20,565 nucleotides of DNA. Source: a virus. Shown piece by piece: positions 1 to 15,670 of the stretch. The stretch lies in the UHGV virus genome UHGV-0070025; one strand, 5' to 3'. Position 1 is the stretch's first letter; the number at the start of each line of letters is the position of its first letter. Below the pieces are notes generated by a model. That model worked only from the letters and a program-made list of their open reading frames with translations. It was not told where the DNA came from and did not search any database. Both the position numbers and the translations under genes were made by a program.

Positions 1-23
1 CGGTATTACGTCGTTCGCTGGGG

Positions 24-503
24 TTGCGTGCGGAAAAAATCCGCTCAATGTACCGTGAAAGCGACATCGTACCGGGAGAGCAGACCGCCACCAGCATACT
101 GAAGCAGCGCACAAAAAATCTTGCGCCGCTGCCTCACGCCCACCAGCAAAACCCGCCACAGGAAGAGACGGTGGTCAGCATTGCCGTTGATCCTGAGTCT
201 CCGGAATCTTTCATGAAACGACCTAAACGTCGCCGCTGGGTTAACGAGAAATACACACGCTGGGTGAAGACACAGCCGTGTGCGTGTTGTGGTAAGCCAG
301 CCGACGATCCCCATCACCTGATTGGTCATGGTCAGGGCGGAATGGGGACAAAATCTCACGATATTTTCACGCTACCGCTGTGTCGGGAGCATCACAACGA
401 GCTTCATGCGGATCCTCTGGCGTTCGAAGAAAAGCATGGTTCTCAGGTTGATTTAATTTTTCGTTTTCTTGATCACGCCTTTGCAACTGGCGTGCTTGGG
501 TAA
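24..503 (+). CDS. nin-region phage protein with Cys/His zinc-binding (HNH-like) motif; probably 5'-truncated by the window edge
   Basis: Reading frame is open from the window start (no stop upstream of the TTG at 24). C-terminus carries CACCGKP..DPHHL..LCREHHNELH. Sits directly upstream of rusA, as nin-region genes do in lambdoid phages. Family name (DUF968-like) is recalled, not verified. Confidence 0.6.
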   Translation: MRAEKIRSMYRESDIVPGEQTATSILKQRTKNLAPLPHAHQQNPPQEETVVSIAVDPESPESFMKRPKRRRWVNEKYTRWVKTQPCACCGKPADDPHHLIGHGQGGMGTKSHDIFTLPLCREHHNELHADPLAFEEKHGSQVDLIFRFLDHAFATGVLG

Positions 504-515
504 AAGAGGTGACTG

Positions 516-890
516 ATGCTCATAGATTTGGTTTTACCTTACCCGCCGACGGTGAACACTTACTGGCGACGCCGTGGCAGCACATATTTTATCTCGGAGG
601 AGGGAAAGCGTTATCGCCGGGCTGTGGCGCTTATTGTTCGCCAGCAGCGGCTGAAATTAAGCCTGTCCGGAAGGCTGGCGATAAAGGTGATTGCAGAGCC
701 ACCGGATAAGCGTCGTCGCGACCTGGACAATATCCTGAAAGCACCGCTGGATGCGCTGACGCATGCGGGAGTGTTAATGGACGATGAGCAGTTTGATGAA
801 ATCAATATCGTTCGTGGTCAGCCAGTATCTGGTGGACGTATGGGGGTGAAGATTTACCCCATAATGCATGAAGAGCAGGTCAAAAAATGA
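516..890 (+). CDS. rusA: crossover junction endodeoxyribonuclease RusA (Holliday junction resolvase)
   Basis: 124 aa; translation has RusA-typical N-terminus (LPYPPTVNTYWRRRG) and the RRRDLDN(I)LKA..DALT catalytic acidic motif; AAGAGG Shine-Dalgarno upstream; position just before Q. Confidence 0.9.
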   Translation: MLIDLVLPYPPTVNTYWRRRGSTYFISEEGKRYRRAVALIVRQQRLKLSLSGRLAIKVIAEPPDKRRRDLDNILKAPLDALTHAGVLMDDEQFDEINIVRGQPVSGGRMGVKIYPIMHEEQVKK

Positions 891-1708
891 AACTGGAAGA
901 TTTACCGAAATACTACTCCCCAAAATCCCCTGGCCTGACCGATGCATCGGCCTCAACGTCAAAAGATGCGCTGAGTATCACTGATGTGATGGCCGCGCAG
1001 GGCATGACACAGAATCGGGCTGAGATGGGGTTTTCTGCGTTCCTGGGGAAAATGGGCATCAGTATGAATGACAGGGCGCGGGCAACAGAATTACTGGCAG
1101 ATTATGCACTCAGTCGGTGCGATCGTGTGGCGGCGTTGAGAAAACTTCCGGCAGAAATAAAACCGGTAGTGATGCGCATTATGGCTTCGTATGCGTTTGA
1201 AGATTATGCCCGTAGCGCGGCGAGCAAAAAACAGTGCCCTTGCTGTCACGGAAAAAAATTTATTGAAAGCGAGGTTTTTACAAACAAGATCCAGTATCCG
1301 GATGGTAAGCCACCAGTGTGGGCAAAGTGCACAAAAGGCGTGTATCCGTCTTACTGGGAAGAATGGAAAAAAGTCAGGGAGGTGGTAAAAGTTGCCTGTC
1401 CGGAGTGTGGCGGAAAGGGTGAGGTTTCCACCGCCTGTAAGGATTGCCGTGGGCGTGGTGTCGCCATTCATCGTGAAGAGTCGGTAAAACGTGGTATGCC
1501 TGTTATCAGAGATTGCCAGCGTTGTGGTGGTCGTGGCTGTGAAAGGCTGCCATCAACGGAGGCATTTAATGCCATATGCAAAGTGACGAGTGCTATCACG
1601 CTTGATACGTGGAAAAAATCAGTGAAACGCTTTTACGATACGTTGGTGGTTCGGTTTGACATTGAAGAGGCATGGGCGGAGCGGCAGTTAAAGAGGGTAA
1701 CGCGATAG
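887..1708 (+). CDS. late-gene antitermination protein Q homologue with Cys-rich zinc-finger region
   Basis: 273 aa; ATGA start/stop overlap with rusA; four CxxCxGxG-like repeats (CPCCHGKK, CPECGGKG, CKDCRGRG, CQRCGGRG); lies immediately upstream of a pR'-like promoter and short terminator, the canonical Q position. Confidence 0.65.
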   Translation: MKLEDLPKYYSPKSPGLTDASASTSKDALSITDVMAAQGMTQNRAEMGFSAFLGKMGISMNDRARATELLADYALSRCDRVAALRKLPAEIKPVVMRIMASYAFEDYARSAASKKQCPCCHGKKFIESEVFTNKIQYPDGKPPVWAKCTKGVYPSYWEEWKKVREVVKVACPECGGKGEVSTACKDCRGRGVAIHREESVKRGMPVIRDCQRCGGRGCERLPSTEAFNAICKVTSAITLDTWKKSVKRFYDTLVVRFDIEEAWAERQLKRVTR

Positions 1709-1710
1709 TG

Positions 1711-1760
1711 TTGTTGATTTTTCCCGAATCTGTGGTAAATTTGCTCTAACGATGGGCGTT
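1711..1760 (+). promoter_or_regulatory. late promoter pR'-like with putative Q-utilisation/pause region
   Basis: GGTAAATTTGCTCTAACGATGGG (1733-1756) closely resembles the lambda pR' -10 and initial transcribed region as I recall it (GGGTAAATTTGACTCAACGATGGG); candidate -35 TTGATT at 1714-1719. Confidence 0.55.
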
Positions 1761-1787
1761 TTATGCCTGACGTTAGAAGATTTTTTA

Positions 1788-1812
1788 CACCCCGCCGCCT
1801 GGCGGGTTTTTT
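1788..1812 (+). terminator. intrinsic terminator (tR'-like) about 40-60 nt downstream of the pR' start
   Basis: CCCGCC-GCCT-GGCGGG hairpin followed by TTTTTT. Confidence 0.75.
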
Positions 1813-1932
1813 ATGACTGAAATCGCGTCAGTACAGTAAACGCGCTGGTGGCGGTGAATACCTGTCTTTCAGCTTGCTGGCTTTTTCGACAAGAGTTATT
1901 GGTGTGTCACGTTAACCGGAAAAGGAAAAGAC

Positions 1933-2130
1933 ATGCTAAAACAGCAGGATATGACAGAAACCGCCAGAGTGGTGTTTAATGAATTAAGCGTTACCGACCC
2001 GGCGACAGTCGGGGAGATAGCGCAGAATACTTACCTTTCACGCGAACGCTGCCAGTTAATACTGACTCAGCTGGTTATGGCGGGTCTGGCAGACTATCAG
2101 TTCGGTTGTTACAGACGCCTTCCGCAGTGA
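1933..2130 (+). CDS. small hypothetical protein, possible helix-turn-helix
   Basis: 65 aa; AAGGAAAAG RBS 6 nt upstream of ATG; segment TVGEIAQNTYLSRERCQLIL looks HTH-like; stop codon sits inside a terminator hairpin. Confidence 0.5.
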   Translation: MLKQQDMTETARVVFNELSVTDPATVGEIAQNTYLSRERCQLILTQLVMAGLADYQFGCYRRLPQ

Positions 2131-2144
2131 AGGCTTTTTTATTT
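2117..2144 (+). terminator. intrinsic terminator
   Basis: GCCTTC-cgcagt-GAAGGC hairpin followed by TTTTTTATTT. Confidence 0.7.
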
Positions 2145-2158
2145 GTGGTAAATGGGCG

Positions 2159-2187
2159 GCTGGTGGGTGTTAGGGGCACCCACCAGC
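2159..2187 (+). promoter_or_regulatory. 11-bp perfect stem hairpin following a second TGTGGTAAAT motif
   Basis: GCTGGTGGGTG-ttagggg-CACCCACCAGC; no U-tract; directly preceded by TGTGGTAAAT (2144-2153), identical to the pR' -10 region at 1731-1740. Confidence 0.35.
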
Positions 2188-2280
2188 CATCTGCTCATGC
2201 GTCCGGATCACAAGCAAACCTCAGGCCCACTGCTTTGCGCAAAAGCAGAATGAGCCTATCAGAGACAGGCTTAATGATCC

Positions 2281-3365
2281 ATGCTTAATACTGTAAAAAT
2301 ATCCAGTTGTGAGTTAATCAACGCCGACTGCCTGGAATTTATCCGGTCGTTACCCGAAAATTCTGTTGACCTGATAGTCACGGACCCGCCGTACTTTAAA
2401 GTGAAGCCTGAGGGCTGGGATAACCAGTGGAAGGGCGACGATGATTACCTGAAGTGGCTGGACCAGTGTCTGGCGCAGTTCTGGCGGGTGCTGAAACCTG
2501 CCGGAAGTCTTTACCTGTTCTGTGGTCATCGCCTGGCATCTGATATCGAAATCATGATGCGTGAACGCTTCAGTGTGCTGAACCATATTATCTGGGCGAA
2601 GCCGTCCGGACGCTGGAACGGATGCAACAAGGAAAGGCTGCGGGCGTATTTCCGTGACTAAACAAGGAAGGGCGGGGGGCTTTTTCCCCCGCCACAGAGC
2701 GCATTCTGTTCGCGGAACATTATCAGGGGCCGTATCGTCCGAAAGATGCCGGGTATGCGGCGAAGGGCAGTGCACTGAAACAGCATGTGATGGCCCCGCT
2801 GATTTCTTACTTTCGTGATGCGCGCGCGGCCCTGGGGATAACGGCAAAACAGATTGCAGATGCCACAGGAAAGAAAAACATGGTGTCGCACTGGTTCAGT
2901 GCCAGTCAGTGGCAGCTACCGAATGAAAGCGATTATCTGAAATTACAGGCGCTGTTTGCCCGGGTGGCAGAAGAGAAGCATCGGCGTGGTGAACTGGAAA
3001 AGCTCCACCACCAGCTGGTGGATACGTATACCTCACTGAACCGGCAGTATGCGGAGCTGCTGAGTGAATATAAACATCTGCGGCGGTATTTTGGCGTGAC
3101 GGTGCAGGTGCCGTATACCGATGTGTGGACGCATAAACCGGTGCAGTTCTATCCCGGGAAACATCCGTGCGAAAAACCGGCAGAAATGCTGCAGCAGATA
3201 ATCAGCGCAAGTAGCCGTCCTGGTGATCTGGTTGCGGATTTTTTCATGGGGTCGGGTTCAACGGTAAAAGCGGCGATGGCACTGGGGCGTCGTGCGATTG
3301 GTGTTGAGCTGGAGACCGGACGTTTTGAGCAGACAGTCAGGGAAGTTCAGGATTTAATCGTTTGA
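2281..3365 (+). pseudogene. beta-class (DPPY...FxGxG) DNA N6-adenine/N4-cytosine methyltransferase, interrupted between the two halves
   Basis: N-terminal part (2281-2661, frame 1) carries motif IV LIVTDPPY. C-terminal part (frame 3, open from 2658, ORF-track start 2787, to 3365) carries motif I DFFMGSGST. Frame 1 stops at TAA 2659-2661; frame 3 has TGA at 2655-2657. The halves cannot be joined without a frame change. Confidence 0.75.
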
Positions 3366-3414
3366 AACGGATGAGATTGCAGAATTAATTACGCACCATT
3401 ATTATTCTGCTCCC

Positions 3415-3490
3415 GGCCCTTTAGCTCAGTGGTGAGAGCGAGCGACTCATAATCGCCAGGTCGCTGGTTCAAATCCAGCAAGGGCCACCA
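3415..3490 (+). tRNA. tRNA with anticodon CAT (Ile2-lysidine or Met type)
   Basis: 76 nt cloverleaf: acceptor GGCCCTT/AAGGGCC, D-arm GCTCAGTGGTGAGAGC, anticodon loop CTCATAA, T-loop TTCAAAT, 3' CCA encoded. Matches the ileZ position of Stx-type phages. Confidence 0.9.
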
Positions 3491-3497
3491 TCACATA

Positions 3498-3574
3498 CCG
3501 CCATTAGCTCATCAGGATAGAGCACCAGCCTTCGAAGCTGGTTGCGCGGGGTTCGAGTCCTCGATGGCGGTCCA
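3498..3574 (+). tRNA. tRNA-Arg (anticodon TCG)
   Basis: 77 nt: acceptor CCGCCAT/ATGGCGG, anticodon stem CCAGC/GCTGG with loop CTTCGAA, T-loop TTCGAGT, CCA encoded. Confidence 0.85.
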
Positions 3575-3587
3575 TTATCTGTACCCT

Positions 3588-3664
3588 GCGTTGTTAGCTC
3601 AACCGGACAGAGCAATTGCCTTCTAAGCAATCGGTCACTGGTTCGAATCCAGTACAACGCGCCA
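3588..3664 (+). tRNA. tRNA-Arg (anticodon TCT)
   Basis: 77 nt: acceptor GCGTTGT/ACAACGC, anticodon stem ATTGC/GCAAT with loop CTTCTAA, T-loop TTCGAAT, CCA encoded. Confidence 0.9.
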
Positions 3665-3678
3665 GACTTATTTTTCCC

Positions 3679-3704
3679 GGCTCGCTTTTGCGGGCCTTTT
3701 TTTT
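3679..3704 (+). terminator. intrinsic terminator after the tRNA cluster
   Basis: GGCTCGC-tttt-GCGGGCC stem (one G.U pair) followed by T8. Confidence 0.7.
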
Positions 3705-3710
3705 AAATGT

Positions 3711-3925
3711 CTCACAATTCAGACGGTTGACAGTTGTCTGTTTTGCGGGGAGTTTGTTAAAAGAAACTGGCATGGTGAATCCCCCTGTGCGGATGGGCAA
3801 TCAGCGAGTAGGTATATGGGATAATCGCGGATTCAGGTGCTGGTACTGAATTCACCGGGAGGCACCCGGCACCATGCAATGGCACATAGCGCCACTCTCC
3901 AGCCCCTCTCCGGAGGGGCTTTTCT
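3711..3925 (+). ncRNA. candidate structured small RNA, tandem unit A
   Basis: Begins with CTCACAATTCAG then TTGACA; shares conserved blocks with unit B (TTTGTTAAAA, GCATGGTGAATCCCCCTG, CACCGGGAGGCACCCGGCACCATG); ends in terminator GCCCCTC-tccg-GAGGGGC + TTTTCT (3902-3925). No convincing ORF. Confidence 0.35.
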
Positions 3926-4114
3926 GTGCCGGATACATCACAGTTTCTGGAACCTTAGGTACTACAGTATCAGTCAGGGTGCTATATTTTCAGATGTGAT
4001 GAAAGCCTGTCAGCAGGCAGGGCGTATCGGAAATGACCCAGTAGAGAAAACGTTGACTCAGATACCGGTGCTGAGTTACCGGGAAACCGGCATCACATGA
4101 CCGCTATCCTTCCA

Positions 4115-4141
4115 GGCCCATCCGCTCCGGTGGGCCTTTTT
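4115..4141 (+). terminator. intrinsic terminator
   Basis: GGCCCA...TGGGCC stem followed by TTTTT. Confidence 0.55.
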
Positions 4142-4178
4142 ACTGCAGAAAACAGGTTCCCCGTTAAATGCTATGTTG

Positions 4179-4412
4179 CTCACAATTCAGTAAGTTGACA
4201 GTTGCCTGTCAGACTGGGCATTTGTTAAAAAAATTTCGCATGGTGAATCCCCCTGAGCGGAGGGGCGACTGGTGACGGTATAATCTCTGATTATCAAAAC
4301 GAGAATGACGCGGGTTTAGTGGCACCGGGCTGAACTCACCGGGAGGCACCCGGCACCATGTGCATGATGATACAGATACGCGGCTTTAGCCCCTCTCCGG
4401 AGGGGTTTTCTT
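4179..4412 (+). ncRNA. candidate structured small RNA, tandem unit B (paralogue of unit A)
   Basis: Same block order as unit A, 468 bp downstream; contains a perfect TATAAT at 4279-4284; ends in terminator GCCCCTC-tccg-GAGGGG(T) + TTTTCTT (4389-4412). Confidence 0.35.
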
Positions 4413-4417
4413 GTGGG

Positions 4418-4447
4418 CAAAAAAAGCCCGCGCTGGGAGACGCGGGC
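4418..4447 (-). terminator. minus-strand intrinsic terminator, back-to-back with the unit B terminator
   Basis: On the minus strand: GCCCGCG-tctcccag-CGCGGGC followed by TTTTTTT (the plus-strand A-run at 4418-4425). Confidence 0.45.
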
Positions 4448-4640
4448 GGCAAGGAATAAACAATAAAACGTGAAGTAATATTTCAGCTGGCGAATAATAC
4501 CCCATAGTAATCACTCTGCGCAACTGCGCGGTCTTTTTCGAATTGCGGGCTGTCGTCTCTCTTCTGCCATTGTCCTGTAACTTCCGGACTTCAGCCCGCT
4601 CCTTATTTTACTCACAATATTATCCCGGCCGGGAGGATTC

Positions 4641-4868
4641 ATGGCATTTAAACACTATGACGTGGTCAGGGCGGTATCGCCGTCAGACCTTGCGAAACGA
4701 CTGACACAAAAACTGAAGGAGGGCTGGCAGCCGTTTGGTAGTCCGGTGGCCATAACCCCTTATACCCTGATGCAGGCGATTGCAGCAGAAGGTGATGTGG
4801 TGGTCAGTGGTGCAACTGAGCCGGATTGGTACTACGTCATCGTACTGGCCCGGCATTCCAGGCCATAA
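4641..4868 (+). CDS. small phage protein, DUF1737-like
   Basis: 75 aa; GGGAGG RBS 5-6 nt upstream of ATG; pattern YDVV..S.SDLAKRL..KL.EGWQPFG resembles DUF1737 as I recall it (unverified). Confidence 0.6.
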   Translation: MAFKHYDVVRAVSPSDLAKRLTQKLKEGWQPFGSPVAITPYTLMQAIAAEGDVVVSGATEPDWYYVIVLARHSRP

Positions 4869-5072
4869 AAGACAGTCTGGCAGTGGGACTAAATGCACTG
4901 ACGCTGATGGATATTACCAAAAATGTAACGTATGGCGTTGAGATAGAAAGTCTGGCGCTGGAGATAAATGCACCGGCATCATCATAAAAAGTGAGCCAGT
5001 CAAATGGAAGGTATCGTTAAACTCACCGGTAGTGTCAGTGGGTCGTCTGAGACGCTTGCATGAGTTATCAGA

Positions 5073-5102
5073 GCCATCAGTAGTTAACTGGTGGCTTTTT
5101 TA
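5073..5102 (+). terminator. intrinsic terminator just upstream of the lysis cassette
   Basis: GCCATCAG-tagttaa-CTGGTGGC (one G.U pair) followed by TTTTTTATTGTTTT. Confidence 0.65.
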
Positions 5103-5136
5103 TTGTTTTCAGCTTCCGGATAACGGGAGACGGGGT

Positions 5137-5352
5137 ATGGACCAGATGGAAAAAATCACAACAGGTGTGTCATACACCACGTCAGCGGTGGGAACGGGCT
5201 ACTGGTTCCTGCAGTTGCTGGACAGGGTTTCCCCGTCTCAGTGGGCGGCAATAGGCGTGCTGGGGAGTCTGCTGTTTGGGCTGCTGACATATCTGACTAA
5301 CCTGTATTTCAAAATCAGAGAGGACCGTCGTAAGGCGGCACGGGGAGAGTAA
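5137..5352 (+). CDS. S: class II holin / pinholin (phage 21 S-like) with dual-start motif
   Basis: 71 aa from ATG 5137; GGGAGA RBS; begins MDQMEK (Met1 and Met4, as in S21 antiholin/holin pair); C-terminus [22 protein letters not shown] matches S21 as recalled. The ORF-track start at 5032 is an upstream in-frame extension. Confidence 0.85.
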
Positions 5353-5356
5353 TTCA

Positions 5357-5701
5357 ATGACTCAAAACTATGAACTGATTGTGAAAGGGATCCGCAATTT
5401 TGAGAATAAAGTTACGGTAACTTTAGCGTTACGGGACAAAAAACGCTTTGACGGTGAAATTTTTGACCTGGACATCTCGCTGGACCGTGTTGAAGGTGCT
5501 GCGCTGGAGTTTTATGAGGCAGCGGCCAGAAGGAGCATCAGACAGGTCTTCCTGGATGTCGCTGCCGGGTTATGTGAAGGGGATGAGCAGTCGCCGGAAA
5601 AGCGCCCCGTAATTTTAGAGGCGCAGAATGTGTGGATAACCTACAAAGGAAAGCTACCGGGAAGGATTACTGGTTCCCTGAAGACTCCGCCGAAATGGTA
5701 G
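5357..5701 (+). CDS. hypothetical protein (accessory gene inserted between holin and endolysin)
   Basis: 114 aa; GGGGAGAG RBS overlapping the holin stop (translational coupling); no transmembrane segment evident; no family recognised. Confidence 0.6.
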   Translation: MTQNYELIVKGIRNFENKVTVTLALRDKKRFDGEIFDLDISLDRVEGAALEFYEAAARRSIRQVFLDVAAGLCEGDEQSPEKRPVILEAQNVWITYKGKLPGRITGSLKTPPKW

Positions 5702-5939
5702 TTTTGCCAGCATAATTTTCTTCCAGCAATGCCGCCAGCCACTTGAAAGAATTTTGTTGTTCCTGGGACCATTTGGGGTTGCGTGATTCAAAATGAATGG
5801 ATGCCAGCGTTGGCAGCATTTGCTCCCTGGGAATTGATAAGGCCAGATGTGAAAATGCAACAGTGAGGGCATTTACATCATCCCGAAGCCTGGAAATGCA
5901 GTCGAGCAACTCCTGTAGAGAAATGGTGCTATTGTCCAT
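5667..5939 (-). CDS. hypothetical protein, convergent with and 3'-overlapping the preceding gene
   Basis: 90 aa on the minus strand; strong GAGGA RBS 6-7 nt upstream of ATG; 35-nt 3' overlap with the + strand ORF; no family recognised. Confidence 0.55.
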   Translation of the reverse strand: MDNSTISLQELLDCISRLRDDVNALTVAFSHLALSIPREQMLPTLASIHFESRNPKWSQEQQNSFKWLAALLEENYAGKTTISAESSGNQ

Positions 5940-6044
5940 AAATAATCCTCTTGATTGTCTTTACCTTTTCCCCGCCTGATTCAACAGGCCGGGACAGATA
6001 AACATATCCAGGGTTCAGAAACCGATAAATCCTGATAAATATCC

Positions 6045-6578
6045 ATGAACGCAAAAATCAAATACGGCCTGTCAGCTGCAGTTCTGGCGCTGATTGGAGC
6101 AGGCGCATCAGCTCCTCAGATACTTGACCAGTTTCTGGATGAAAAAGAAGGTAACCACACAACGGCATACCGCGATGGTTCCGGCATCTGGACCATCTGT
6201 CGGGGTGCCACGATGGTGGATGGAAAACCCGTTTTTCCCGGTATGAAACTGTCGAAGGAAAAATGCGACCAGGTCAACGCCATTGAGCGTGATAAGGCGC
6301 TGGCATGGGTGGAGCGCAATATTAAAGTACCACTGACCGAACCACAAAAAGCGGGTATCGCGTCATTTTGTCCCTATAACATTGGCCCCGGTAAGTGTTT
6401 TCCATCGACGTTTTATAAGCGGCTGAATGCTGGTGATCGTAAGGGCGCATGCGAGGCGATTCGCTGGTGGATAAAAGATGGTGGGCGCGATTGCCGCATA
6501 CGTTCAAATAACTGCTATGGACAGGTTATTCGTCGTGACCAAGAAAGCGCATTAGCCTGTTGGGGAATAGATCAGTGA
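6045..6578 (+). CDS. R: SAR endolysin (lysozyme, phage 21 R / RrrD-like)
   Basis: 177 aa; N-terminal Gly/Ala-rich weakly hydrophobic segment ([16 protein letters not shown]) typical of signal-anchor-release domains; catalytic-region motifs (EG..TAYRD..G.WTICRG) resemble T4-lysozyme-type phage lysozymes. Confidence 0.9.
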
Positions 6579-7042
6579 GCAGAGTCGCCGCGATTATTTA
6601 TGCTCTGGTTATCTGCATCATCGTCTGCCTGTCGTGGGCGGTCAATCATTACCGTGATAACGCCATCACCTACAAAGAACAGCGTGATAAAAAAGTCAGT
6701 GAGCTGAAGCAGCTGACCGCCACCATCGCTGACATGCAGCAGCGTCAGCGTGATGTTGCTGCGCTCGATGCAAAGTACTCGAGAGAATTAGCCAATGCGA
6801 AAGCTGAAAATGAAACTCTGCGCGCTGATGTTGCCGCTGGTCGTAAGCGCCTGCGGGTCAATGCCAGTTGCTCCGCAGCCGTGCGTGAAGCCACCGGACC
6901 CACCAGCGTGGATAATGCAACCAGCCCCAGACTGGCAGACACCGCTGAACGGGATTATTTCACCCTCAGAGAACGGTTGATGACGATGCAGAAGCAACTG
7001 GAAGGGGCACAGCTATACATTCGTGAGCAATGTCTCAGATAA
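6575..7042 (+). CDS. Rz: Rz inner-membrane spanin
   Basis: GTG start overlapping the endolysin stop; N-terminal transmembrane helix ([17 protein letters not shown]) then coiled-coil periplasmic domain; contains the embedded Rz1 frame. Confidence 0.85.
6795..6980 (+). CDS. Rz1: Rz1 outer-membrane lipoprotein spanin, embedded in the +1 frame of Rz
   Basis: 61 aa; lipobox LVVSAC; proline-rich mature part ([30 protein letters not shown]) nearly identical in pattern to lambda Rz1. Confidence 0.85.
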
Positions 7043-7197
7043 AAACCGGCCAAGGATAATCCGCTAAAGATTCGCCGGTGGCGAAAGAGAGCCAAGGTGT
7101 CAACCTACGCTATTACTTATGATAATGCAACAGACGAAGCGGGACATATTGGCGCATAACAAATCAGTGCAGGCTAACTGCAGGAAGAACTTAGGGC

Positions 7198-7464
7198 GTG
7201 AACGTAGAAAACCTAAGTAACGCACATTACATCTATAACGAGATGAAAGAGCTACAGCGACAGAAAGGTATACTGGAAAGTGGTGCAGGGCTTGGTGTGA
7301 CAATCCAGTCTGCCTATCAATATAGTGCTTTTCTTGAGGCCATACGCCCGCATGCAGTTGCTGAACTTAACAGCCGTATTGAGGAAAAGAAATCCGCGCT
7401 GGTTAATTTGGGTGCTTCCTTCTCTATATACGAGCATAATAAGGCGGGTTGGAAACCCGCCTAA
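7198..7464 (+). CDS. hypothetical small protein (uncertain)
   Basis: 88 aa from GTG (alternative ATG at 7243); weak RBS; the 3' end runs through the hairpin that serves as terminator for the convergent minus-strand gene. Confidence 0.3.
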   Translation: MNVENLSNAHYIYNEMKELQRQKGILESGAGLGVTIQSAYQYSAFLEAIRPHAVAELNSRIEEKKSALVNLGASFSIYEHNKAGWKPA

Positions 7465-7469
7465 AGCAC

Positions 7470-8009
7470 TTAGAAACTGCGTGGAGCTGTGGAAAGAATG
7501 GATGCCAGTTCTTCCTTCGATAAATCCCAGCTTCGATTTACAGCGTCAATTTTCTTAAACTCATCAAGCATTGCGTTATAGAGATGTTCTGTACGTGAAT
7601 GAGTATTGGCAATGGGCTGTTTCTGTTCGGGGAAGCGATCAATTTTCTGATATGCCTCAATGATACTGAAGTAATCGCATTCATTATTACCGTCGAAACC
7701 TGGGAGCTGAATTGCCCCATCATGTATTTTTAGATGATGGTCACGGACTAATTCTTTTTGCTCGTCATCACTAAGTTTCCTGAAAGCATTGGAAAGTCCG
7801 CGATACATATTCAAGACAGCAGTAACAAAATCACGATCTTCTTTACTTGGTTCGTCAACATCCAAATGTGAATATTCGGCCTTGATAACCCAATCATTAC
7901 CAGATGACACAGCATATTTAACAAGCTGTGGATCAATATCAGTTTCGATACCTAGGTGGATGGCAATGTCACATAACAAAATGGTATTGATTTTATCTTT
8001 AATATCCAT
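7470..8009 (-). CDS. hypothetical accessory protein, possibly YfbU-family (UPF0304)-like
   Basis: 179 aa; GAGGG RBS on minus strand; AT-richer than flanking phage genes; followed on the minus strand by hairpin GGCGGGTT/AACCCGCC (about 7444-7462) and a U-rich tail; YfbU resemblance is from memory of the E. coli protein and is unverified. Confidence 0.6.
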   Translation of the reverse strand: MDIKDKINTILLCDIAIHLGIETDIDPQLVKYAVSSGNDWVIKAEYSHLDVDEPSKEDRDFVTAVLNMYRGLSNAFRKLSDDEQKELVRDHHLKIHDGAIQLPGFDGNNECDYFSIIEAYQKIDRFPEQKQPIANTHSRTEHLYNAMLDEFKKIDAVNRSWDLSKEELASILSTAPRSF

Positions 8010-8147
8010 GAGTTAACCCTCTGAAGTAAAAAGTAATATCTACACCCGTTGGCTCATGAAGTCTATTGATCTGTCTCATATCAGCAGCAAATCTATTCCA
8101 TGGAGATACTCAATGCAGGTCACCTTTGATTTATATAAGGGCGAAAC

Positions 8148-8498
8148 ATGCCAGCACTAATCCCACGCGCCTGCCGTAAGCGTGGATGTGCAGGTACAAC
8201 CACAGACAGTTCTGGTTACTGCGATAAACATCGTGGCGAAGGATGGGTACAGCATCAACGCGGACTGAGCCGCCACCAGCGTGGCTATGGCTCGAAATGG
8301 GATGCCATACGTGCGCGCATACTGAAGCGTGATAATCATCTGTGTCAGAACTGCCTGCGCAATGGGAGAGCCGTTGAAGCCAGAACTGTGGACCACATCA
8401 TTCCGAAAGCTCATGGTGGCACGGATGCAGACAGTAACCTGCAGAGTCTGTGCTGGCCCTGTCATAAAGCAAAAACAGCGCGCGAACGCATCAATTGA
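8148..8498 (+). CDS. HNH homing-type endonuclease associated with the terminase
   Basis: 116 aa; N-terminal Cys cluster (CRKRGC...CDKH) and HNH core (CQNCLRNGR...VDHIIPKAHGG...NLQSLCWPCHKAK); sits directly upstream of the small terminase, as in HK97-like cos phages. Confidence 0.85.
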   Translation: MPALIPRACRKRGCAGTTTDSSGYCDKHRGEGWVQHQRGLSRHQRGYGSKWDAIRARILKRDNHLCQNCLRNGRAVEARTVDHIIPKAHGGTDADSNLQSLCWPCHKAKTARERIN

Positions 8499-8645
8499 TA
8501 ACAGCTCCCATCTGCAGGGGAGGGGCGGGTCAAATCTCTGCAACCCTGGCTGTTCAGTACCGCCGCCTGACCTTTCCTCGCATCGCCGCAGGTTCGAAAA
8601 CTTTTTTTTGGAATGTGATTAAATGATTGATAGGTAAAACCGATT

Positions 8646-9128
8646 ATGTCTGGACCCCCGAAAACCCCGCCACGCCTGCATTTGATACGAGGCAACCCCT
8701 CAAAGCGGCCAGTTAAAGACCTCAAAAAAACCGCTAAAAAGGATGAAAAAGGTCTCCCTAAAATTCCGCAACATTTAGGGGCGCAGGGGAAGTACTGGTT
8801 CAGGCGAATGGCGGAAGAGCTGAATGCGGAAGGGATCATTTCTCAGCTTGATGCGCGTGCGCTTGAGCTACTGGTGGAAGCCTATACCGAATACCGGCAT
8901 CACTGCGAAACACTCGATGTTGAGGGGTACACCTACCGCTCGGAAACGCAGAACGGTGATGTGCTGATTAAGGCACACCCAGCTGCTGCGATGAAAGCGG
9001 ATGCCTGGAAGCGGATCCGGGCGATGCTTGCAGAATTTGGTATGTCACCGGCAAGCCGGGCAAAAGTAAATACCGCCGGACCGGATAATGTTGATCCGCT
9101 GGCAGAGCTTTTAAAAGCGAGAGACTGA
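8646..9128 (+). CDS. terminase small subunit (P27-family-like)
   Basis: 160 aa; position between HNH and large terminase; stop overlaps the large-terminase ATG (ATGA). Confidence 0.8.
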   Translation: MSGPPKTPPRLHLIRGNPSKRPVKDLKKTAKKDEKGLPKIPQHLGAQGKYWFRRMAEELNAEGIISQLDARALELLVEAYTEYRHHCETLDVEGYTYRSETQNGDVLIKAHPAAAMKADAWKRIRAMLAEFGMSPASRAKVNTAGPDNVDPLAELLKARD

Positions 9129-10885
9129 TGGCAAAAGTGGCTGACGGGATCCGCTACGCCGAACGTGTTGTTGCAGGAGAAATTGTTGCTGGCGAATTTG
9201 TCCGCCTGGCCTGCCAGCGTTTTCTTGATGATCTGAAGTACGGCGAAAAGCGGGGGATTTATTTCAGTGAACCCCGTGCGCAGCACATCCTGAATTTCTA
9301 CAAATTTGTGCCTCATGTAAAAGGGGCACTGGCAGGCCAGCCCATTGAGTTGATGGACTGGCATGTATTTATCCTCATTAATATTTTTGGTTTTGTCATT
9401 CCGCTGGTCAATGAAGAAACCGGGGAAGTTGTCATGCGCAGCGATGGCAGCGGACGTCCGGTGATGGTGCGCCGGTTCCGGACGGCGTACAACGAAGTCG
9501 CCCGTAAAAACGCAAAATCAACCCTGTCATCGGGTATCGGCCTGTATATGACGGGGGCAGATAGTGAAGGCGGAGCTGAGGTGTATTCAGCCGCAACCAC
9601 GCGTGACCAGGCCAGAATCGTGTTTGAAGACGCCAAAAATATGGTCAGAAAAGCCCGGTCGACACTCGGGCGGTTGTTTGATTTCAACAAGCTGGCGATT
9701 TACCAGGAGCAGAGCGCATCAAAATTTGAACCGCTTTCCTCGGATGCAAACAACCTGGACGGTCTGAACATCCACTGCGCCATTATTGATGAGCTGCATG
9801 CACATAAAACCCGCGACGTGTGGGACGTTCTGGAGACGGCAACCGGTGCCCGTCTGCAGTCTCTGTTATTTGGCATCACCACGGCTGGCTTTAACAAGGA
9901 AGGGATTTGTTACGAGCAGCGTGATTACGCCATCAAGGTATTGCGAGGCTATAACAGCGACGTGGAGGGCGCGGTAAAAGACGACTCCTACTTTGCGATC
10001 ATTTACACGCTCGATGAGGGAGATGATCCGTTTGATGAAACGGTCTGGCAGAAAGCGAATCCTGGCCTGGGCATCTGTAAACGCTGGGATGATCTGCGTC
10101 GTCTGGCGAAAAAAGCGAAGGAGCAGGTCTCTGCGCGGGTGAATTTTTTTACCAAACACATGAATGTGTGGGTCACTGCCGAATCTGCCTGGATGGATAT
10201 GATTAAGTGGGAGAAGTGCGAATACATTGCTCCACAACATGAGCTGAAAACATATCCCATGTGGGTCGGCGTCGACCTTGCTCATAAGATTGATATCTGT
10301 GCGGCGGCAAAACTCTGGCGAACCGATAACGGACATGTTCATGCTGATTTTAAATTCTGGCTTCCGGAAGGACGGCTGGAACGATGCTCGCGGCAGCAGG
10401 CAGAACTTTACCGGAAGTGGGCGGAGATGGATAAGCTCATCCTGACGGATGGTGATGTTATCGATCATGCTCAGATAAAAAGTGACTTACTGGAATGGAT
10501 TGGCGGTGAAAACCTCAGGGAACTGGGATTTGACCCGTGGAGCGCAATGCAGTTCAGCCTGGCACTGGCTGAAGAAGGGATACCGCTGGTGGAGGTTCCG
10601 CAGACGGTCCGCAATCTGTCAGAGGCCATGAAGGAAACGGAATCACTGGTTTATGCCGGGCGTTTCCATCACAGCAATCATCCGGTCATGAACTGGATGA
10701 TGTCTAACGTTACTGTAAAACCGGACAAAAACGACAACATCTTCCCGAATAAATCCACGCCGGAAGCCAAAATCGACGGCCCTGTTGCGCTTTTTACAGC
10801 CATGAGCCGCTTTCTGGTAAATGGCGGGGGCGTGAATGACTTTCTGTCCACGCTTGATCCTGATGAGGACTTGTTAATTCTGTGA
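9128..10885 (+). CDS. terminase large subunit
   Basis: 585 aa; N-terminal ATPase region and C-terminal nuclease region typical of HK97/Terminase_1-type large terminases; gene order terS-terL-portal. Confidence 0.95.
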   Translation: MAKVADGIRYAERVVAGEIVAGEFVRLACQRFLDDLKYGEKRGIYFSEPRAQHILNFYKFVPHVKGALAGQPIELMDWHVFILINIFGFVIPLVNEETGEVVMRSDGSGRPVMVRRFRTAYNEVARKNAKSTLSSGIGLYMTGADSEGGAEVYSAATTRDQARIVFEDAKNMVRKARSTLGRLFDFNKLAIYQEQSASKFEPLSSDANNLDGLNIHCAIIDELHAHKTRDVWDVLETATGARLQSLLFGITTAGFNKEGICYEQRDYAIKVLRGYNSDVEGAVKDDSYFAIIYTLDEGDDPFDETVWQKANPGLGICKRWDDLRRLAKKAKEQVSARVNFFTKHMNVWVTAESAWMDMIKWEKCEYIAPQHELKTYPMWVGVDLAHKIDICAAAKLWRTDNGHVHADFKFWLPEGRLERCSRQQAELYRKWAEMDKLILTDGDVIDHAQIKSDLLEWIGGENLRELGFDPWSAMQFSLALAEEGIPLVEVPQTVRNLSEAMKETESLVYAGRFHHSNHPVMNWMMSNVTVKPDKNDNIFPNKSTPEAKIDGPVALFTAMSRFLVNGGGVNDFLSTLDPDEDLLIL

Positions 10886-11043
10886 AACAGCTTATTACTG
10901 ATATGACCGGGCTGATCGGTTTCGGTTTGCTCACTGCTGGCGTTTATCTGTATGCAGGTCTGCCAGCGTCTCTGATGCTGTCGGGCTGTTTGTTGCTGCT
11001 TTATGCACTGGTGGTGTCCATGAGGAGAAAACATGCTTCTTGA
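10882..11043 (+). CDS. possible small membrane protein between terminase and portal (uncertain)
   Basis: 53 codons from GTG overlapping the terL stop (alternative ATG at 10903); two hydrophobic stretches (GLIGFGLLTAGVYLYAGL, LMLSGCLLLLYALVV); weak RBS; overlaps the portal start. Confidence 0.3.
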   Translation: MKQLITDMTGLIGFGLLTAGVYLYAGLPASLMLSGCLLLLYALVVSMRRKHAS

Positions 11044-12259
11044 TGCTCTGTTTCGCAGTGAGCCTCTGGAAAATCCCTCGGTTCCGGTAACCGGAGAGGC
11101 CGCTGAGACGGATAATATTTTTGCCCGGGATGTGTATGTCAGTCCGGAAACATCCATGAAGCTGGCTGCTGTCTATGCCTGTATTTATGTTATTTCATCC
11201 AGTGTGGCTCAGATGCCCCTGCATGTGATGCGAAAAACGAATGAGCATGTTCAGCCGGCACGCGATCACCCGTTGTTCTGGCTCGTTCATGATGAACCTA
11301 ATGCCTGGCAGACCAGCTATAAGTGGCGGGAACTGAAGCAGCGTCATGTGCTGGGGTGGGGCAATGGTTATACGTGGGTAAAACGTAATCGTCGTGGCGA
11401 GGTTACCAGTCTTGAATGCTGTATGCCATGGGAAACCACGTTACTTAACACCGGAGGGCGTCATACCTACGGTGTGTATAACGAAGAGGGTGCATTTGCG
11501 GTAAGTCCGGACGACATGATCCATATCAGGGCGCTGGGAAACAATCAGAAAATGGGACTGAGTCCGATCATGCAGCATGCTGAAACCATTGGTATGGGAA
11601 TGAGTGGTCAGCAGTATACCAGTGCTTTTTTTAACGGTAATGCCCGTCCTGCCGGGATTATTTCTGTGAAAAATGAACTGAACGAACAGAGTTGGAGCAG
11701 GCTCAAGAATATGTGGCAGCGGGCGGTGACAGCGCTTCGCAGTCAGGAAAATAAAACCATGCTGCTGCCTGCGCAACTGGATTACCGCGCTCTGACAGTT
11801 TCTCCGGTGGATGCTCAGATCATTGATATGACCAAGCTGAACCGGTCGATGATTGCCGGGATTTTTAATGTCCCGGCGCACATGATTAATGACCTGGAAA
11901 AAGCCACATTTTCGAATATTACGCAGCAGGCGATTCAGTTTGTTCGCTACACGATGATGCCCTGGGTTGCGAACTGGGAGCAGGAGCTTAACCGTCGCCT
12001 GTTTACCCGTACAGAACGGGCTGCCGGGTATTACGTTCGTTTCAACCTCACGGGGTTGCTCCGTGGGACCCCACAGGAGCGTGCGCAGTTCTATCACTTT
12101 GCCATTACAGATGGCTGGATGAGCCGGAATGAAGCCAGGGCATTTGAGGATATGAACCCGGTTGACGGTCTGGATGAAATGCTGGTCAGCGTAAATGCAG
12201 CAAATCCGTTGAATAACTTTAAAGATACGAAAGGCAAAGAGGAAAAGAACGATGAATGA
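11033..12259 (+). CDS. portal protein (HK97 family)
   Basis: 408 aa; GAGGAG RBS; size and position after terL; sequence resembles HK97-type portals. Confidence 0.9.
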   Translation: MLLDALFRSEPLENPSVPVTGEAAETDNIFARDVYVSPETSMKLAAVYACIYVISSSVAQMPLHVMRKTNEHVQPARDHPLFWLVHDEPNAWQTSYKWRELKQRHVLGWGNGYTWVKRNRRGEVTSLECCMPWETTLLNTGGRHTYGVYNEEGAFAVSPDDMIHIRALGNNQKMGLSPIMQHAETIGMGMSGQQYTSAFFNGNARPAGIISVKNELNEQSWSRLKNMWQRAVTALRSQENKTMLLPAQLDYRALTVSPVDAQIIDMTKLNRSMIAGIFNVPAHMINDLEKATFSNITQQAIQFVRYTMMPWVANWEQELNRRLFTRTERAAGYYVRFNLTGLLRGTPQERAQFYHFAITDGWMSRNEARAFEDMNPVDGLDEMLVSVNAANPLNNFKDTKGKEEKNDE

Positions 12260-12851
12260 CCGTGAAACGCGCTGTTACAGCGGGGAGGTGCGGGCGGAAC
12301 AATATGATAATGCCCCGACCCACATTCTGGGCTATGGCTCGGTATTTAACAGTCGTTCAGAACCTCTGTGGGGATTTCGTGAAATCATCAAGCCGGGGGC
12401 TTTTGATGATGTACTGAATGATGATGTACGTGGCTTGTTTAATCATGATCCTAATTTCATTCTCGGACGAAGTTCTGCCGGCACGTTGTCATTGTCGGTG
12501 GATGAACGCGGTTTACGTTATGACATTGTTGCACCGGATACTCCGACTATTTGTGACCTGGTGCTGTCTCCAATGTTGCGTGGTGACATTAATCAGTCCT
12601 CGTTCGCGTTTCGTGTCGCCCGTGACGGAGAGAGCTGGTATGAAGACGACGAGGGGATTGTTATCCGGGAAATCACGCGCATTTCTCGTCTGTATGACGT
12701 CAGCCCGGTGACATATCCGGCCTATCAGGACGCAGACTCTGGTGTCCGCTCAATGAAAGCCTGGCAGGAAGCGCGGGCGAGTGGTGCGCTGAAGAAAGCT
12801 GTTAACGAACGAATGGCGCGTGAGCGTCTTTTGACCCTTCTTAATGCATAA
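12252..12851 (+). CDS. prohead maturation protease (HK97 family, S78-like)
   Basis: 199 aa; start overlaps the portal stop; position between portal and capsid. Confidence 0.9.
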   Translation: MNDRETRCYSGEVRAEQYDNAPTHILGYGSVFNSRSEPLWGFREIIKPGAFDDVLNDDVRGLFNHDPNFILGRSSAGTLSLSVDERGLRYDIVAPDTPTICDLVLSPMLRGDINQSSFAFRVARDGESWYEDDEGIVIREITRISRLYDVSPVTYPAYQDADSGVRSMKAWQEARASGALKKAVNERMARERLLTLLNA

Positions 12852-12865
12852 GGATACTACTGACG

Positions 12866-14083
12866 ATGAAACTTCATGAGATGAAGCAAAAACGAAACAC
12901 CATTGCAAAGGATATGCGTGCACTGCATGAAAAAATTGGTGATAACGCATGGACTGATGAGCAACGGGCAGAGTGGAACAGGGCGAAAGCTGAGCTGGAT
13001 GCGCTGGATGAGCAAATCGCCCGTGAAGAAGAGTTGCGCCGTCAGGATCAGGCATATGTGGATGAGTCCGGGCCGGAAGAGCGCCAGAATAATGAGGCGG
13101 AGAACGGGAAAAAGGCGGTGGAAGAGAAGCGCGCTGCGGCATTTAACCGTTTTCTGCGTGCCGGATTTGCAGAACTGAATGCTGAAGAGCGTAATCTGAT
13201 GCGTGAACTGCGGGCTCAGAGTGTAACAACGGATTCTCAGGGCGGATATACGGTGCCCACGCAGATGCGTAACAAAATCATTGACACCATGAAGGCTTAT
13301 GGCGGGATTGCCAGTGTGGCGCAACTTCTGACCACATCAACCGGGCAGGATATCACCTGGTCAACGTCTGATGGCACGACTGAAGAGGGCGAACTGCTGG
13401 CGGAAAATACAGCCGCAACGGAACAGGATGTGACGTTCGGGACCGCTATTCTGGGGGCTAAAAAGCTGTCATCAAAAATAATTCGTGTGTCCAATGAGCT
13501 GCTCCAGGACAGTGGGGTGGATATTGAATCTTATCTGGCAAACCGTATTGCCCAGCGTATTGGTCGTGGAGAGGCAAAATATCTGGTTCAGGGGACCGGA
13601 ACGGGATCACCGTTACAGCCAAAAGGGCTGGCAGCGTCGGTGACGGGAACCATCCAGACTGCAGCCTCTGCCGCTTTCACCTGGAAAGAAATGAATGCCC
13701 TGAAACATGCCATTGATCCGGCATATCGTGGTGGGCCGAAATACCGCTGGGCATTCAATGATGCCACATTGCAGACTATTGAAGAGATGGAGGATGGACA
13801 GAAACGCCCGTTATGGCTGCCGGATATTGCAGGCGGTACGCCGGCTACTGTGCTGGGGATCCCTTATGTTATTGATCAGGCTATTGACGGGATTGGTACC
13901 GGAAAAAAATTCATTTTCCTGGGGGATTTCAACCGCTTTATCATTCGCCGCGTTACTTATATGGAACTGAAACGTCTGGTTGAGCGTTATGCTGAGTTTG
14001 ATCAGGTGGCATTTCTGGCTTTCCATCGTTTTGACTGTGTGCTGGAAGATGTGGCAGCCATCAAGGCGCTCACTGGCAAATAA
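12866..14083 (+). CDS. major capsid protein (HK97 fold) with N-terminal coiled-coil delta/scaffold domain
   Basis: 405 aa; AAGGA RBS; N-terminal charged coiled-coil about 100 aa followed by a capsid domain; followed by a terminator. Confidence 0.9.
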   Translation: MKLHEMKQKRNTIAKDMRALHEKIGDNAWTDEQRAEWNRAKAELDALDEQIAREEELRRQDQAYVDESGPEERQNNEAENGKKAVEEKRAAAFNRFLRAGFAELNAEERNLMRELRAQSVTTDSQGGYTVPTQMRNKIIDTMKAYGGIASVAQLLTTSTGQDITWSTSDGTTEEGELLAENTAATEQDVTFGTAILGAKKLSSKIIRVSNELLQDSGVDIESYLANRIAQRIGRGEAKYLVQGTGTGSPLQPKGLAASVTGTIQTAASAAFTWKEMNALKHAIDPAYRGGPKYRWAFNDATLQTIEEMEDGQKRPLWLPDIAGGTPATVLGIPYVIDQAIDGIGTGKKFIFLGDFNRFIIRRVTYMELKRLVERYAEFDQVAFLAFHRFDCVLEDVAAIKALTGK

Positions 14084-14104
14084 CCACTCGTTGTTCAGTT
14101 ACAG

Positions 14105-14127
14105 ACCGCGCCGACGCGGTTTTTTTA
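14105..14127 (+). terminator. intrinsic terminator after the major capsid gene
   Basis: ACCGCG-ccga-CGCGGT followed by a T-run; a second hairpin GCCCGCA-cagtgt-TGCGGGC follows at 14129-14148. Confidence 0.7.
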
Positions 14128-14159
14128 TGCCCGCACAGTGTTGCGGGCAGGAGTTTCTG

Positions 14160-14477
14160 ATGGCAGCAATAGTGGAAAAACTCAGGGCGCAGTGCCGTAT
14201 TGATACAGATGATGCAACTGATGATGAGTTACTGATGCTGTATTTCCGGGCTGCCTGCCGCAAGGCAGAAAATTTTATCAACCGTAAGCTTTATGAGGAG
14301 ACGGTGCCAGAAGGTGATCCTGAAGGGGTGCTTATAGCTGATGATGTTTTGCTGGCGCTCATGTTGCTGGTCGGGCACTGGTACGAAAACCGGGAAAATT
14401 CCTCAGATGTCAGCAAGGCACCAGTCCCGTTTGGTTTTTCTTCTCTTCTGGAGCCTTATCGTTTTATTCCTTTGTAG
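14160..14477 (+). CDS. head-tail connector / DNA-packaging protein (gp6-like)
   Basis: 105 aa from ATG 14160 with AGGAG RBS (the ORF-track start at 13980 is an in-frame upstream extension across the terminator); position after the capsid gene. Confidence 0.8.
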   Translation: MAAIVEKLRAQCRIDTDDATDDELLMLYFRAACRKAENFINRKLYEETVPEGDPEGVLIADDVLLALMLLVGHWYENRENSSDVSKAPVPFGFSSLLEPYRFIPL

Positions 14478-14485
14478 GAGGAGAC

Positions 14486-14824
14486 ATGCAGGCGGGCAGA
14501 TTACGTGATCGCGTAATTATTCTGAATGTCACCACCGCCCGCTCTCCGTCAGGGCATCCGGTGGAGACGGTGACGGAGGGAGCTACCGTATGGGCAGAAG
14601 TTAAGGGTATCAGCGGGAGGGAGATAATCTCAGGCGGAGCAGAAACCGCTCAGGCTACGGTCAGAGTCTGGATGAGATTCCGGCGCGATGTGACAGCGAC
14701 TTCACGTCTGAAAGTGCTGACCGGTGCATTCAAAGGCGCGATTCTGGGTATAGAAGGTCCACCAATACCGGATGCACGCGCTACCCGGCTTGAAATGCTC
14801 TGCAGCCTGAAGGGAAATGTGTGA
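14486..14824 (+). CDS. head closure / head-tail joining protein
   Basis: 112 aa; AGGAGG RBS; position and size. Confidence 0.8.
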   Translation: MQAGRLRDRVIILNVTTARSPSGHPVETVTEGATVWAEVKGISGREIISGGAETAQATVRVWMRFRRDVTATSRLKVLTGAFKGAILGIEGPPIPDARATRLEMLCSLKGNV

Positions 14825-15270: not shown

Positions 15271-15611
15271 GGGAGGGCACACTGTATTCCCTGTTGTCTC
15301 AGCTGGCCGGAGGACAGGTTTATCCTTATGTGGTCCCGCTGACGGAGGGAAAGCCTGCGGTATCTCCGCCGTGGCTGGTGTTTTCTGTGGTGTCTGACAC
15401 GGCATCTGATGTGCTTGATGGGCAGGCTGAATCCAGAATTACCGTGCAGATCGATGTCTGGGCGACAGTACCTGATGACGCAGATAATATTCGTGAGCAG
15501 GCGCTTGATGCGGTAAGAAAACTGGCACCCTCCGTTATTTCTAAAACGCAGGGGTATGATCCTGACTCCCGTCTGAGCAGAGCCACGCTTGAATTTCAGG
15601 TAATAGCCTGA
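15267..15611 (+). CDS. tail completion / tail terminator protein (DUF3168-like)
   Basis: 114 aa; ATGA overlap with the previous gene; followed by a terminator. Confidence 0.7.
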   Translation: MREGTLYSLLSQLAGGQVYPYVVPLTEGKPAVSPPWLVFSVVSDTASDVLDGQAESRITVQIDVWATVPDDADNIREQALDAVRKLAPSVISKTQGYDPDSRLSRATLEFQVIA

Positions 15612-15631
15612 GGTCGTTAATGATTTACCCA

Positions 15632-15657: not shown

Positions 15658-15670
15658 TCAGGAGACGAGT

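Follow-up and report, generated by a model that had tools for sequence, protein, structure and literature searches.

The window analysed here is a whole metagenome contig of 20,565 nt (ENA ERZ1741866, NODE_1276_length_20565_cov_4.04), assembled at a k-mer coverage of ~4x. The locus belongs to a lambdoid prophage, of which it is the late-regulatory region, with genes in the order DUF968, RusA, Q antiterminator, a 65-aa ORF, methyltransferase, three tRNA genes, lysis genes, and HK97/P27-type structural genes. The Q antiterminator gene (887–1708) and the 65-aa ORF (1933–2130) lie upstream of the methyltransferase, whereas the three phage tRNA genes (3415–3664, plus strand; anticodons CAT, TCG, and TCT) follow directly downstream of it. 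This conserved context allowed the locus to be identified, and a matching gene order was found in phage 1720a-02, Stx2 phages, phiP27, MS8345, and O104:H4.

Once its frame was repaired, the methyltransferase gene was seen to encode a protein of 349 aa, of which 340 residues (97%) are identical to the O104:H4 prophage methyltransferase WP_000935536.1. O104:H4 carries two such enzymes, M.EcoGI and M.EcoGII, each of 349 aa and mutually identical at 333 of 349 positions (PMC5778455); WP_000935536.1 is one of these two copies. Both have been characterized as prophage-encoded, beta-class, non-specific N6-adenine methyltransferases of DNA and RNA, silent in the lysogen and harmful when expressed (PMC5778455). 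The methyltransferase gene of phage 1720a-02, the enzyme of which was named as a very similar relative in the M.EcoGII paper (PMC5778455), was 94% identical in DNA to the gene in the window. Solved structures were of distant relatives only, and NCBIfam matches scored under their cut-offs. On the strength of these alignments, the gene is assigned to the M.EcoGI/M.EcoGII family of beta-class PF01555 methyltransferases, and sequence-independent adenine methylation is predicted for its product. An earlier reading of this DNA, made from its letters and open reading frames (hereafter the sequence-only reading), had described an orphan phage methyltransferase, correctly, given that no restriction gene adjoins it, and had put it forward as an anti-restriction candidate, which is right but already established for the M.EcoGI/M.EcoGII family. 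Both the family and its presumed anti-restriction role are therefore already known.

A single uninterrupted methyltransferase frame was absent from the contig, with frame 1 stopping at 2659–2661 and frame 3 closed until 2657. The N-terminal part (2281–2661, plus strand, frame 1, 126 aa) contains TDPPY, with catalytic motif IV (DPPY), near its N terminus (encoded at 2380–2394), matched positions 1–94 of the Pfam profile PF01555 (N6_N4_Mtase; E = 6e-17), and ends at TAA 2659–2661; its last two codons, CGT GAC, fall within an aberrant stretch of 35 nt. The C-terminal part (2658–3365, plus strand, frame 3) holds the target-recognition region and, C-terminal to it, the AdoMet-binding motif I (FxGxG) as FMGSG at 3243–3257, and matched positions 119–219 of the same profile (E = 6e-24). 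The order of motifs in the methyltransferase is thus IV, then target-recognition region, then I. Frame 3 carries TGA at 2655–2657 and is afterwards open as far as the stop at 3363–3365. The earliest start codons in the C-terminal part are GTG 2787 and ATG 2790, and the start chosen by the gene caller for the C-terminal ORF was ATG 2880. When checked against the sequence and the list of open reading frames, the two stops, the frame change, and the 8-bp all-GC hairpin were all at the positions given in the sequence-only reading. The full frame was regained only by removal of 35 nt; excision of 2652–2686, as also proposed there, joins the two halves as ...LRAYF-PATERILFAEHY..., and the product is base-for-base an intact allele.

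That allele is the intact gene of E. coli MS8345 (WP_001513760.1), to which the gene without 2652–2686 is identical at 1050 of 1050 nt, the segments 2281–2653 and 2689–3365 each being 100% identical to it. Over window positions 1–2653 and 2687–3517, zero differences from the MS8345 prophage were seen; all differences fall in the extra copy, and the 35 nt are therefore the only lesion in ~3.5 kb. Alignment to homologues also disposed of a 1-nt deletion, which had been one of the explanations suggested, because the intact alleles differ from the contig by exactly 35 nt. The gene is widespread: 38 phage records carry it, among them Stx2 phages, phiP27, and 1720a-02, and so do 1,978 of the 5,426 complete E. 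coli genomes; the insert was absent from all of these records and genomes. The 35 nt were missing from all full-length phage matches and from every E. coli match listed (aligned lengths, homologue versus window, of 1041 versus 1076 nt and of 186 versus 221 nt). An allele at least 99% identical occurred in 121 E. coli records and, among the matches listed, consisted of the gene without the 35 nt. No E. coli record covered at least 80% of window positions 2640–2705. Searches for a hairpin 24-mer and a left-junction 22-mer returned 0 exact matches in 185,579 GTDB species genomes and in JGI metagenomes, and a 28-mer across the hairpin returned 0 matches in IMG/VR. Within the window there was no second copy of the insert when up to 3 mismatches were allowed. 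By exact protein look-up, this contig is alone among those on record in encoding the 126-aa truncated protein.

The extra 35 nt (2654–2688, equivalently 2652–2686, plus strand) proved on offset-35 self-comparison to be a corrupted tandem copy of the genuine gene sequence at 2619–2653 (plus strand), with which it is identical at 24 of 35 positions. Agreement is concentrated in the core of the copy (2661–2688; 22 of 28 positions), and the GTGACTA at 2654–2660 matches at 2 of 7 positions. In a blastn alignment to the E-1246 prophage, reference bases 3339–3366 (28 bases) were used twice. By this likeness to its neighbor, the insert is identified as locally derived and not as foreign DNA. It supplies TGA 2655–2657, TAA 2659–2661, the left arm of the hairpin, and part of the right arm, and CC dinucleotides lie on either side of it (2652–2653 and 2687–2688). 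Part of a natural, weak quasi-palindrome, GGCTGCGGG-CGTATT-TCCCCGCC, is contained in the source copy, namely its left arm and its loop; its right arm is situated just past the insertion point.

A mismatch of 31% (11 of 35) in the copy, beside ~3.5 kb of perfect identity, excludes gradual or ordinary divergence; the copy was made, errors included, in one event. The errors have a direction. All 6 core mismatches, and 8 of the 11 overall, equal the next source base on the plus strand, which is the preceding base on the minus strand (P = 0.0014 for the core and P = 0.004 overall), and 9 of 11 match at a lag of 1–2. In the opposite direction, a previous-base match was seen in 3 of 11 mismatches (P = 0.62). 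On the minus strand, ...CTCTGTGGCGGGGAAATACGCCCGCAGCCTTTCCTTGTT... is the true sequence and ...CTCTGTGGCGGGGGAAAAAGCCCCCCGCCCTTCCTTGTT... that of the contig, and the first miscall comes directly after GTGGCGGGG.

The hairpin (2671–2693, plus strand) is formed by GGCGGGGG (2671–2678), which is perfectly complementary to CCCCCGCC (2686–2693), giving 8 bp of all-GC stem and a 7-nt loop with an optional ninth G-U pair. RNA folding of 2660–2700 (41 nt) gave −19.7 kcal/mol and added the ninth pair, G2679-U2685. The hairpin had been placed eight nucleotides downstream of the TAA in the sequence-only reading; it is present, but its stem begins after 9 nt (2662–2670), not 8. It exceeds chance expectation: no other perfect, all-GC hairpin of 8 bp occurs in the 20.5-kb window, and one was seen in just 0.3% of Markov-simulated windows. 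Its minus-strand sequence scores as terminator-like. Among the six core miscopies, three (T>G 2674, C>G 2676, and T>C 2686) lie where the natural quasi-palindrome is imperfect, and it is because of these three that the weak repeat (GGCTGCGG / TCCCCGCC) has become a perfect GC hairpin. The hairpin is accordingly a by-product of the base changes, not a designed signal.

From the contig sequence, the split is probably an artefact of sequencing and assembly. Having read through GTGGCGGGG, a GGC motif that lies in an inverted repeat, minus-strand reads would, starting with the base that follows, call the previous base again and again, so that AAATACGCCCGCAGCCTTT would become GAAAAAGCCCCCCGCCCTT. 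At ~4x k-mer coverage, the assembler may then have held a correct end from the left and an error-laden end, made of minus-strand reads, from the right; the two, too unlike to merge, would have been placed end to end, with an imperfect duplication of 35 nt as the result. The frameshift, the two stops, and the perfect GC hairpin would be by-products of this dephasing and join. Sequence-specific errors of this kind are documented for Illumina reads, in which consecutive miscalls start directly behind GGC or an inverted repeat and affect one direction of reading (PMC3141275). The SPAdes-style name of the contig is the sole basis on which the platform was taken to be Illumina. Most likely, the real phage carries an intact 349-aa enzyme, with the intact junction reading TATTTCCCCGCC. 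Two points speak against an artefact: assemblers normally throw out minority paths, and the lag model accounts for GTGACTA (2654–2660) in part only, with 3 of the 5 mismatches there equal to one of the two preceding bases. The contig is listed under 2 samples, which would argue for a real variant if these were independent assemblies.

Draft short-read assemblies do break contigs within this conserved gene block, which may lend the artefact a little support. The 857 N-terminal fragments gathered in one cluster are clean contig-end truncations and not the lesion described here.

A genuine and very recent inactivating mutation, which would make the gene a private pseudogene, is the strongest competitor to an artefact, although we consider it unlikely. 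It would have arisen in one step at the GGC-rich quasi-palindrome, through an accident of replication or repair in which 35 nt were duplicated by low-fidelity synthesis with transient misalignment ("dislocation" mutagenesis), a process that also gives substitutions by the next template base. The gene would then be dead, leaving a 126-aa N-terminal fragment with DPPY and a C-terminal fragment without a nearby start codon. Any real event must be recent, the gene being otherwise identical to a live allele, and an assembler would usually keep the majority path. In addition, a quasi-palindrome that was already there is made perfect by three of the six core changes, as would happen in templated quasi-palindrome mutation, but such correction covers only these three and predicts neither changes in the loop nor a duplication. 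Eleven substitutions in 35 new nt (31%) are far beyond the known error rates of cellular polymerases, and we know of none that would make a duplication with 31% errors. The strict directional previous-base pattern right after GGC is an exact match to the sequencing artefact, and the variant is a singleton at ~4x coverage.

The methyltransferase gene is, nonetheless, recurrently broken elsewhere by unrelated lesions. Contigs in 106 blocks of the collection likewise had the 161-aa C-terminal ORF called on them, and in those contigs that were read the gene was broken by differing lesions (coordinates in gene nt). Isolate genomes contained an additional A at nt 531 (L011), loss of one C at nt 323 (L014), and an IS3-family insertion near nt 431–433 (L010). 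In metagenome scaffolds there were deletions of 4 nt at 302–305 (L015), of 7 nt at 355–361, inside the same GGC-rich quasi-palindrome (L016), of 14 nt at 520–533 (L017), and of 32 nt at 401–432 (L013), and in a Logan assembly the 5' part of the gene was replaced upstream of nt 436 (L012). Such recurrent disruption fits the reported toxicity of expressed M.EcoGII and, as the gene is truly broken by other lesions in many assemblies, a real lesion in the window is not improbable a priori. The lesions seen elsewhere in the gene are, however, clean, being indels or an IS insertion, and none resembles a duplication with 31% errors. It is an observation in its own right that, across other E. coli assemblies, the gene for a toxic enzyme has been disrupted independently and in many different ways.

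Programmed recoding, whereby a hairpin-stimulated −1 shift or a hop between matched codons would carry ribosomes from frame 1 to frame 3, is very improbable. It would allow the full-length enzyme to be made and could throttle a toxic methyltransferase, and at first sight the site is suggestive: a stable hairpin (−19.7 kcal/mol) stands just 3' of the stops, and the duplication yields pairs of matched codons, for take-off and landing, that are separated by gaps of 29–32 nt (TTC 2650 / TTT 2682, CGG 2641 / CGG 2673, and AAC-AAG-GAA 2626–2634 / 2661–2669). Were ribosomes to hop from GAA 2632 to GAA 2667, the protein would have its normal length, and GAA 2632 is followed by AGG, a rare codon in E. 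coli. Matched codons are, however, the automatic outcome of any duplication; no stop adjoins a matched take-off codon, and the hairpin lies over the landing region. For a −1 shift, no X XXY YYZ slippery heptamer was found between 2599 and 2661, and a shift is workable only in the stretch from the frame-3 stop to the frame-1 stop (2658–2661), and would require tRNA-Asp to re-pair from GAC to UGA. A stimulating structure would be expected 5–9 nt beyond the slip site; the hairpin begins 9 nt past the TAA, and there is no slip site from which to measure a spacing. Neither site nor structure is conserved: the 35 nt were missing in every homologue with a readable junction, the insert occurred in no other sequence searched, and programmed recoding is consequently left without support. 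Intact homologues without a conserved hairpin, which the sequence-only reading had itself named as refuting recoding, were thus found. Of the four explanations listed in that reading, a small insertion carrying the hairpin and a sequencing error stand, and apparently describe the same thing, but a 1-nt deletion and recoding do not.

Equally improbable is the insertion of a small mobile or foreign element, such as a MITE- or REP-like hairpin, a terminator cassette, or a mini-intron. The strong GC hairpin of the insert, terminator-like on the minus strand, and the flanking CC dinucleotides (2652–2653 and 2687–2688) would suit such an element. A MITE- or REP-like sequence should, however, be present in multiple copies, and there is one in the window and none in the collections scanned. 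The identity of the insert with adjacent gene sequence at 24 of 35 positions marks it as local, not foreign, and 35 nt is far under the size of any self-splicing intron; this reading is effectively refuted. Least credible of all is that the 35-nt duplication is real and that part of the ribosomes hop across it (GAA 2632 to GAA 2667, or TTC 2650 to TTT 2682), which would yield a small amount of full-length M.EcoGII-like enzyme and make the site a newly born bypass element throttling a toxic, non-specific adenine methyltransferase.

Several further candidates were tried and rejected. An old, diverged tandem duplication is at odds with the 100% identity of the rest of the gene and of 3.5 kb of flanks to an intact allele. 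A donor allele or gene conversion with NKEGRGAFSP was rejected on the absence of the hairpin 24-mer from GTDB and JGI and of the 28-mer from IMG/VR, and a DGR-type mutagenic copy on substitutions that are not adenine-specific. Transcriptional slippage cannot rescue the frame, as the G6, T5, and C5 runs are all 3' of the frame-1 stop. Termination-reinitiation was rejected because frame 3 offers no start before 2787 and the one start close by, GTG 2654, belongs to frame 2. An adapter was considered as the source of the 7-nt filler; TAGTCAC shares just 6 nt (AGTCAC) with the TruSeq adapter sequence, which is not significant.

The split is not a biological device and in all likelihood not a real feature of the phage, and it has no function whether it is an artefact or a mutation; at best, the feature is a private pseudogene lesion in a known gene. 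The case is a caution that a convincing "recoding site" can come from short-read dephasing errors combined with a bad join at low coverage, and gene calls split at GGC-rich quasi-palindromes in low-coverage metagenome contigs merit a read-level check first.

Among known systems, the nearest precedent for bypass is gene 60 of phage T4, in which the take-off codon GGA stands directly before a stop and inside a hairpin, a nascent-peptide signal is needed, and the gap of 50 nt is a fixed feature of the gene. The window shares with it a short untranslated gap in a phage gene (29–35 nt here, 50 nt in T4), a hairpin, nearby stops, and matched codons flanking the gap. It differs in that the TAA lies two codons beyond the best take-off codon (TTC 2650), the hairpin (2671–2693) is on the landing side, where it overlaps the landing codons, and the gap is seen in a single contig only.

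Templated mutation at quasi-palindromes is matched insofar as an imperfect repeat (GGCTGCGG / TCCCCGCC) was made perfect by three changes falling exactly on its mismatches. In contrast to that mechanism, the changes here hit both arms, the other three core changes are outside the stem (one just 5' of it and two in the loop), and neither the 35-nt duplication nor the 7 poorly matching bases are predicted.

A further likeness is to the sequence-specific errors of Illumina reads reported by Nakamura et al. 2011 (Nucleic Acids Res 39:e90). As there, the miscalls begin right after a GGC in an inverted repeat, and they repeat the reference base before them in 6 of 6 cases in the core and in 8 of 11 overall. 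The published effect consists of mismatches in reads, not of a duplication in a contig; since dephasing leaves the duplication unexplained, an extra assembly step would be needed.

At the level of the gene, the comparison is with M.EcoGI and M.EcoGII, from which this contig differs by the 35 extra bases that break the frame. The O104:H4 locus likewise has a Q antiterminator, a 65-aa ORF, the methyltransferase, and tRNA Ile/Arg/Arg, and the N-terminal DPPY, central target-recognition region, and C-terminal FxGxG of M.EcoGII are also found here.

In the loci read from the collection, the methyltransferase gene of the M.EcoGI/M.EcoGII family was disrupted by differing, independent lesions. The 161-aa C-terminal ORF (window positions 2880-3365) was called in identical form on contigs from 106 of the collection's blocks. 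Among the loci read (from loci L010-L018), the lesions comprised a single-base insertion (+1 A at gene nt 531), a single-base loss (-1 C at gene nt 323), four deletions (4, 7, 14 and 32 nt), replacement of the 5' part of the gene at nt 436 and, near gene nt 431-433, insertion of an IS3-family element. Toxicity on expression has been reported for an enzyme of this family (PMC5778455); taken together with the variety of lesions in the loci read, this suggests that the gene is recurrently inactivated.

For the present contig, the seven bases that open the extra 35-nt copy (GTGACTA, 2654-2660) match the source copy at only two positions, and only three of the five mismatches are accounted for by the dephasing model of Illumina sequence-specific errors. 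The 90% protein cluster of the N-terminal fragment (2281-2661) holds 857 'partial' N-terminal methyltransferase pieces that come from draft assemblies of E. coli and Salmonella, with lengths of 84-148 aa that are limited by cluster membership itself. All 12 of the pieces inspected were clean contig-end truncations, and short-read assemblies therefore do break within the conserved methyltransferase block.

The make-up of the contig was also compared with two prophages. Its left end (1-3517) is 100% identical to the prophage of E. coli MS8345, the structural genes of which are lambda-like, and its right 14.6 kb (5989-20565) matches the E-1246 prophage at 99.6% identity; the head and tail module of that prophage is of the P27/HK97 type. 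Between both parts, at 3518-6583, identity to MS8345 is only ~98%. The contig is a mosaic, perhaps through the natural mosaicism of lambdoid phages, perhaps because a low-coverage assembly produced a chimera.

Upstream of the methyltransferase, a perfect 12-bp inverted repeat with a 7-nt loop, GGCTGGTGGGTG / CACCCACCAGCC, was located at 2157-2187 (+ strand), in the intergenic region between a 65-aa ORF and the methyltransferase start. The same sequence is present in MS8345, and no T-run was found at the repeat. Two terminator-like hairpins with T-runs, at 1791-1806 (just after the antiterminator gene Q) and 2117-2134, both lie upstream of it.

Three phage tRNA genes follow the methyltransferase on the + strand, with anticodons CAT (3415-3490), TCG (3498-3574) and TCT (3588-3664). 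ARAGORN called the first of these as Met, based solely on the anticodon; among the related records examined, most label this CAT tRNA tRNA-Ile (ileZ), and the Stx2_95 record gives tRNA-Met. After the tRNA genes and before the lysis genes, the Rfam sRNA family STnc100 (RF02076) is matched twice over its full length, at 3741-3931 and 4209-4418 (+ strand; 130 and 161 bits, respectively). The two matches occupy the position of stx in Stx phages, where the window has no toxin gene.

A gene for a tail assembly chaperone and, after it, one for tail assembly protein T were placed at about 16389-17062 (+ strand) by offset from positions 15764-16437 of the related E-1246 prophage (L004). In lambda-like phages this pair is joined by a conserved programmed -1 frameshift, and it would be the place in the window to look for genuine recoding.
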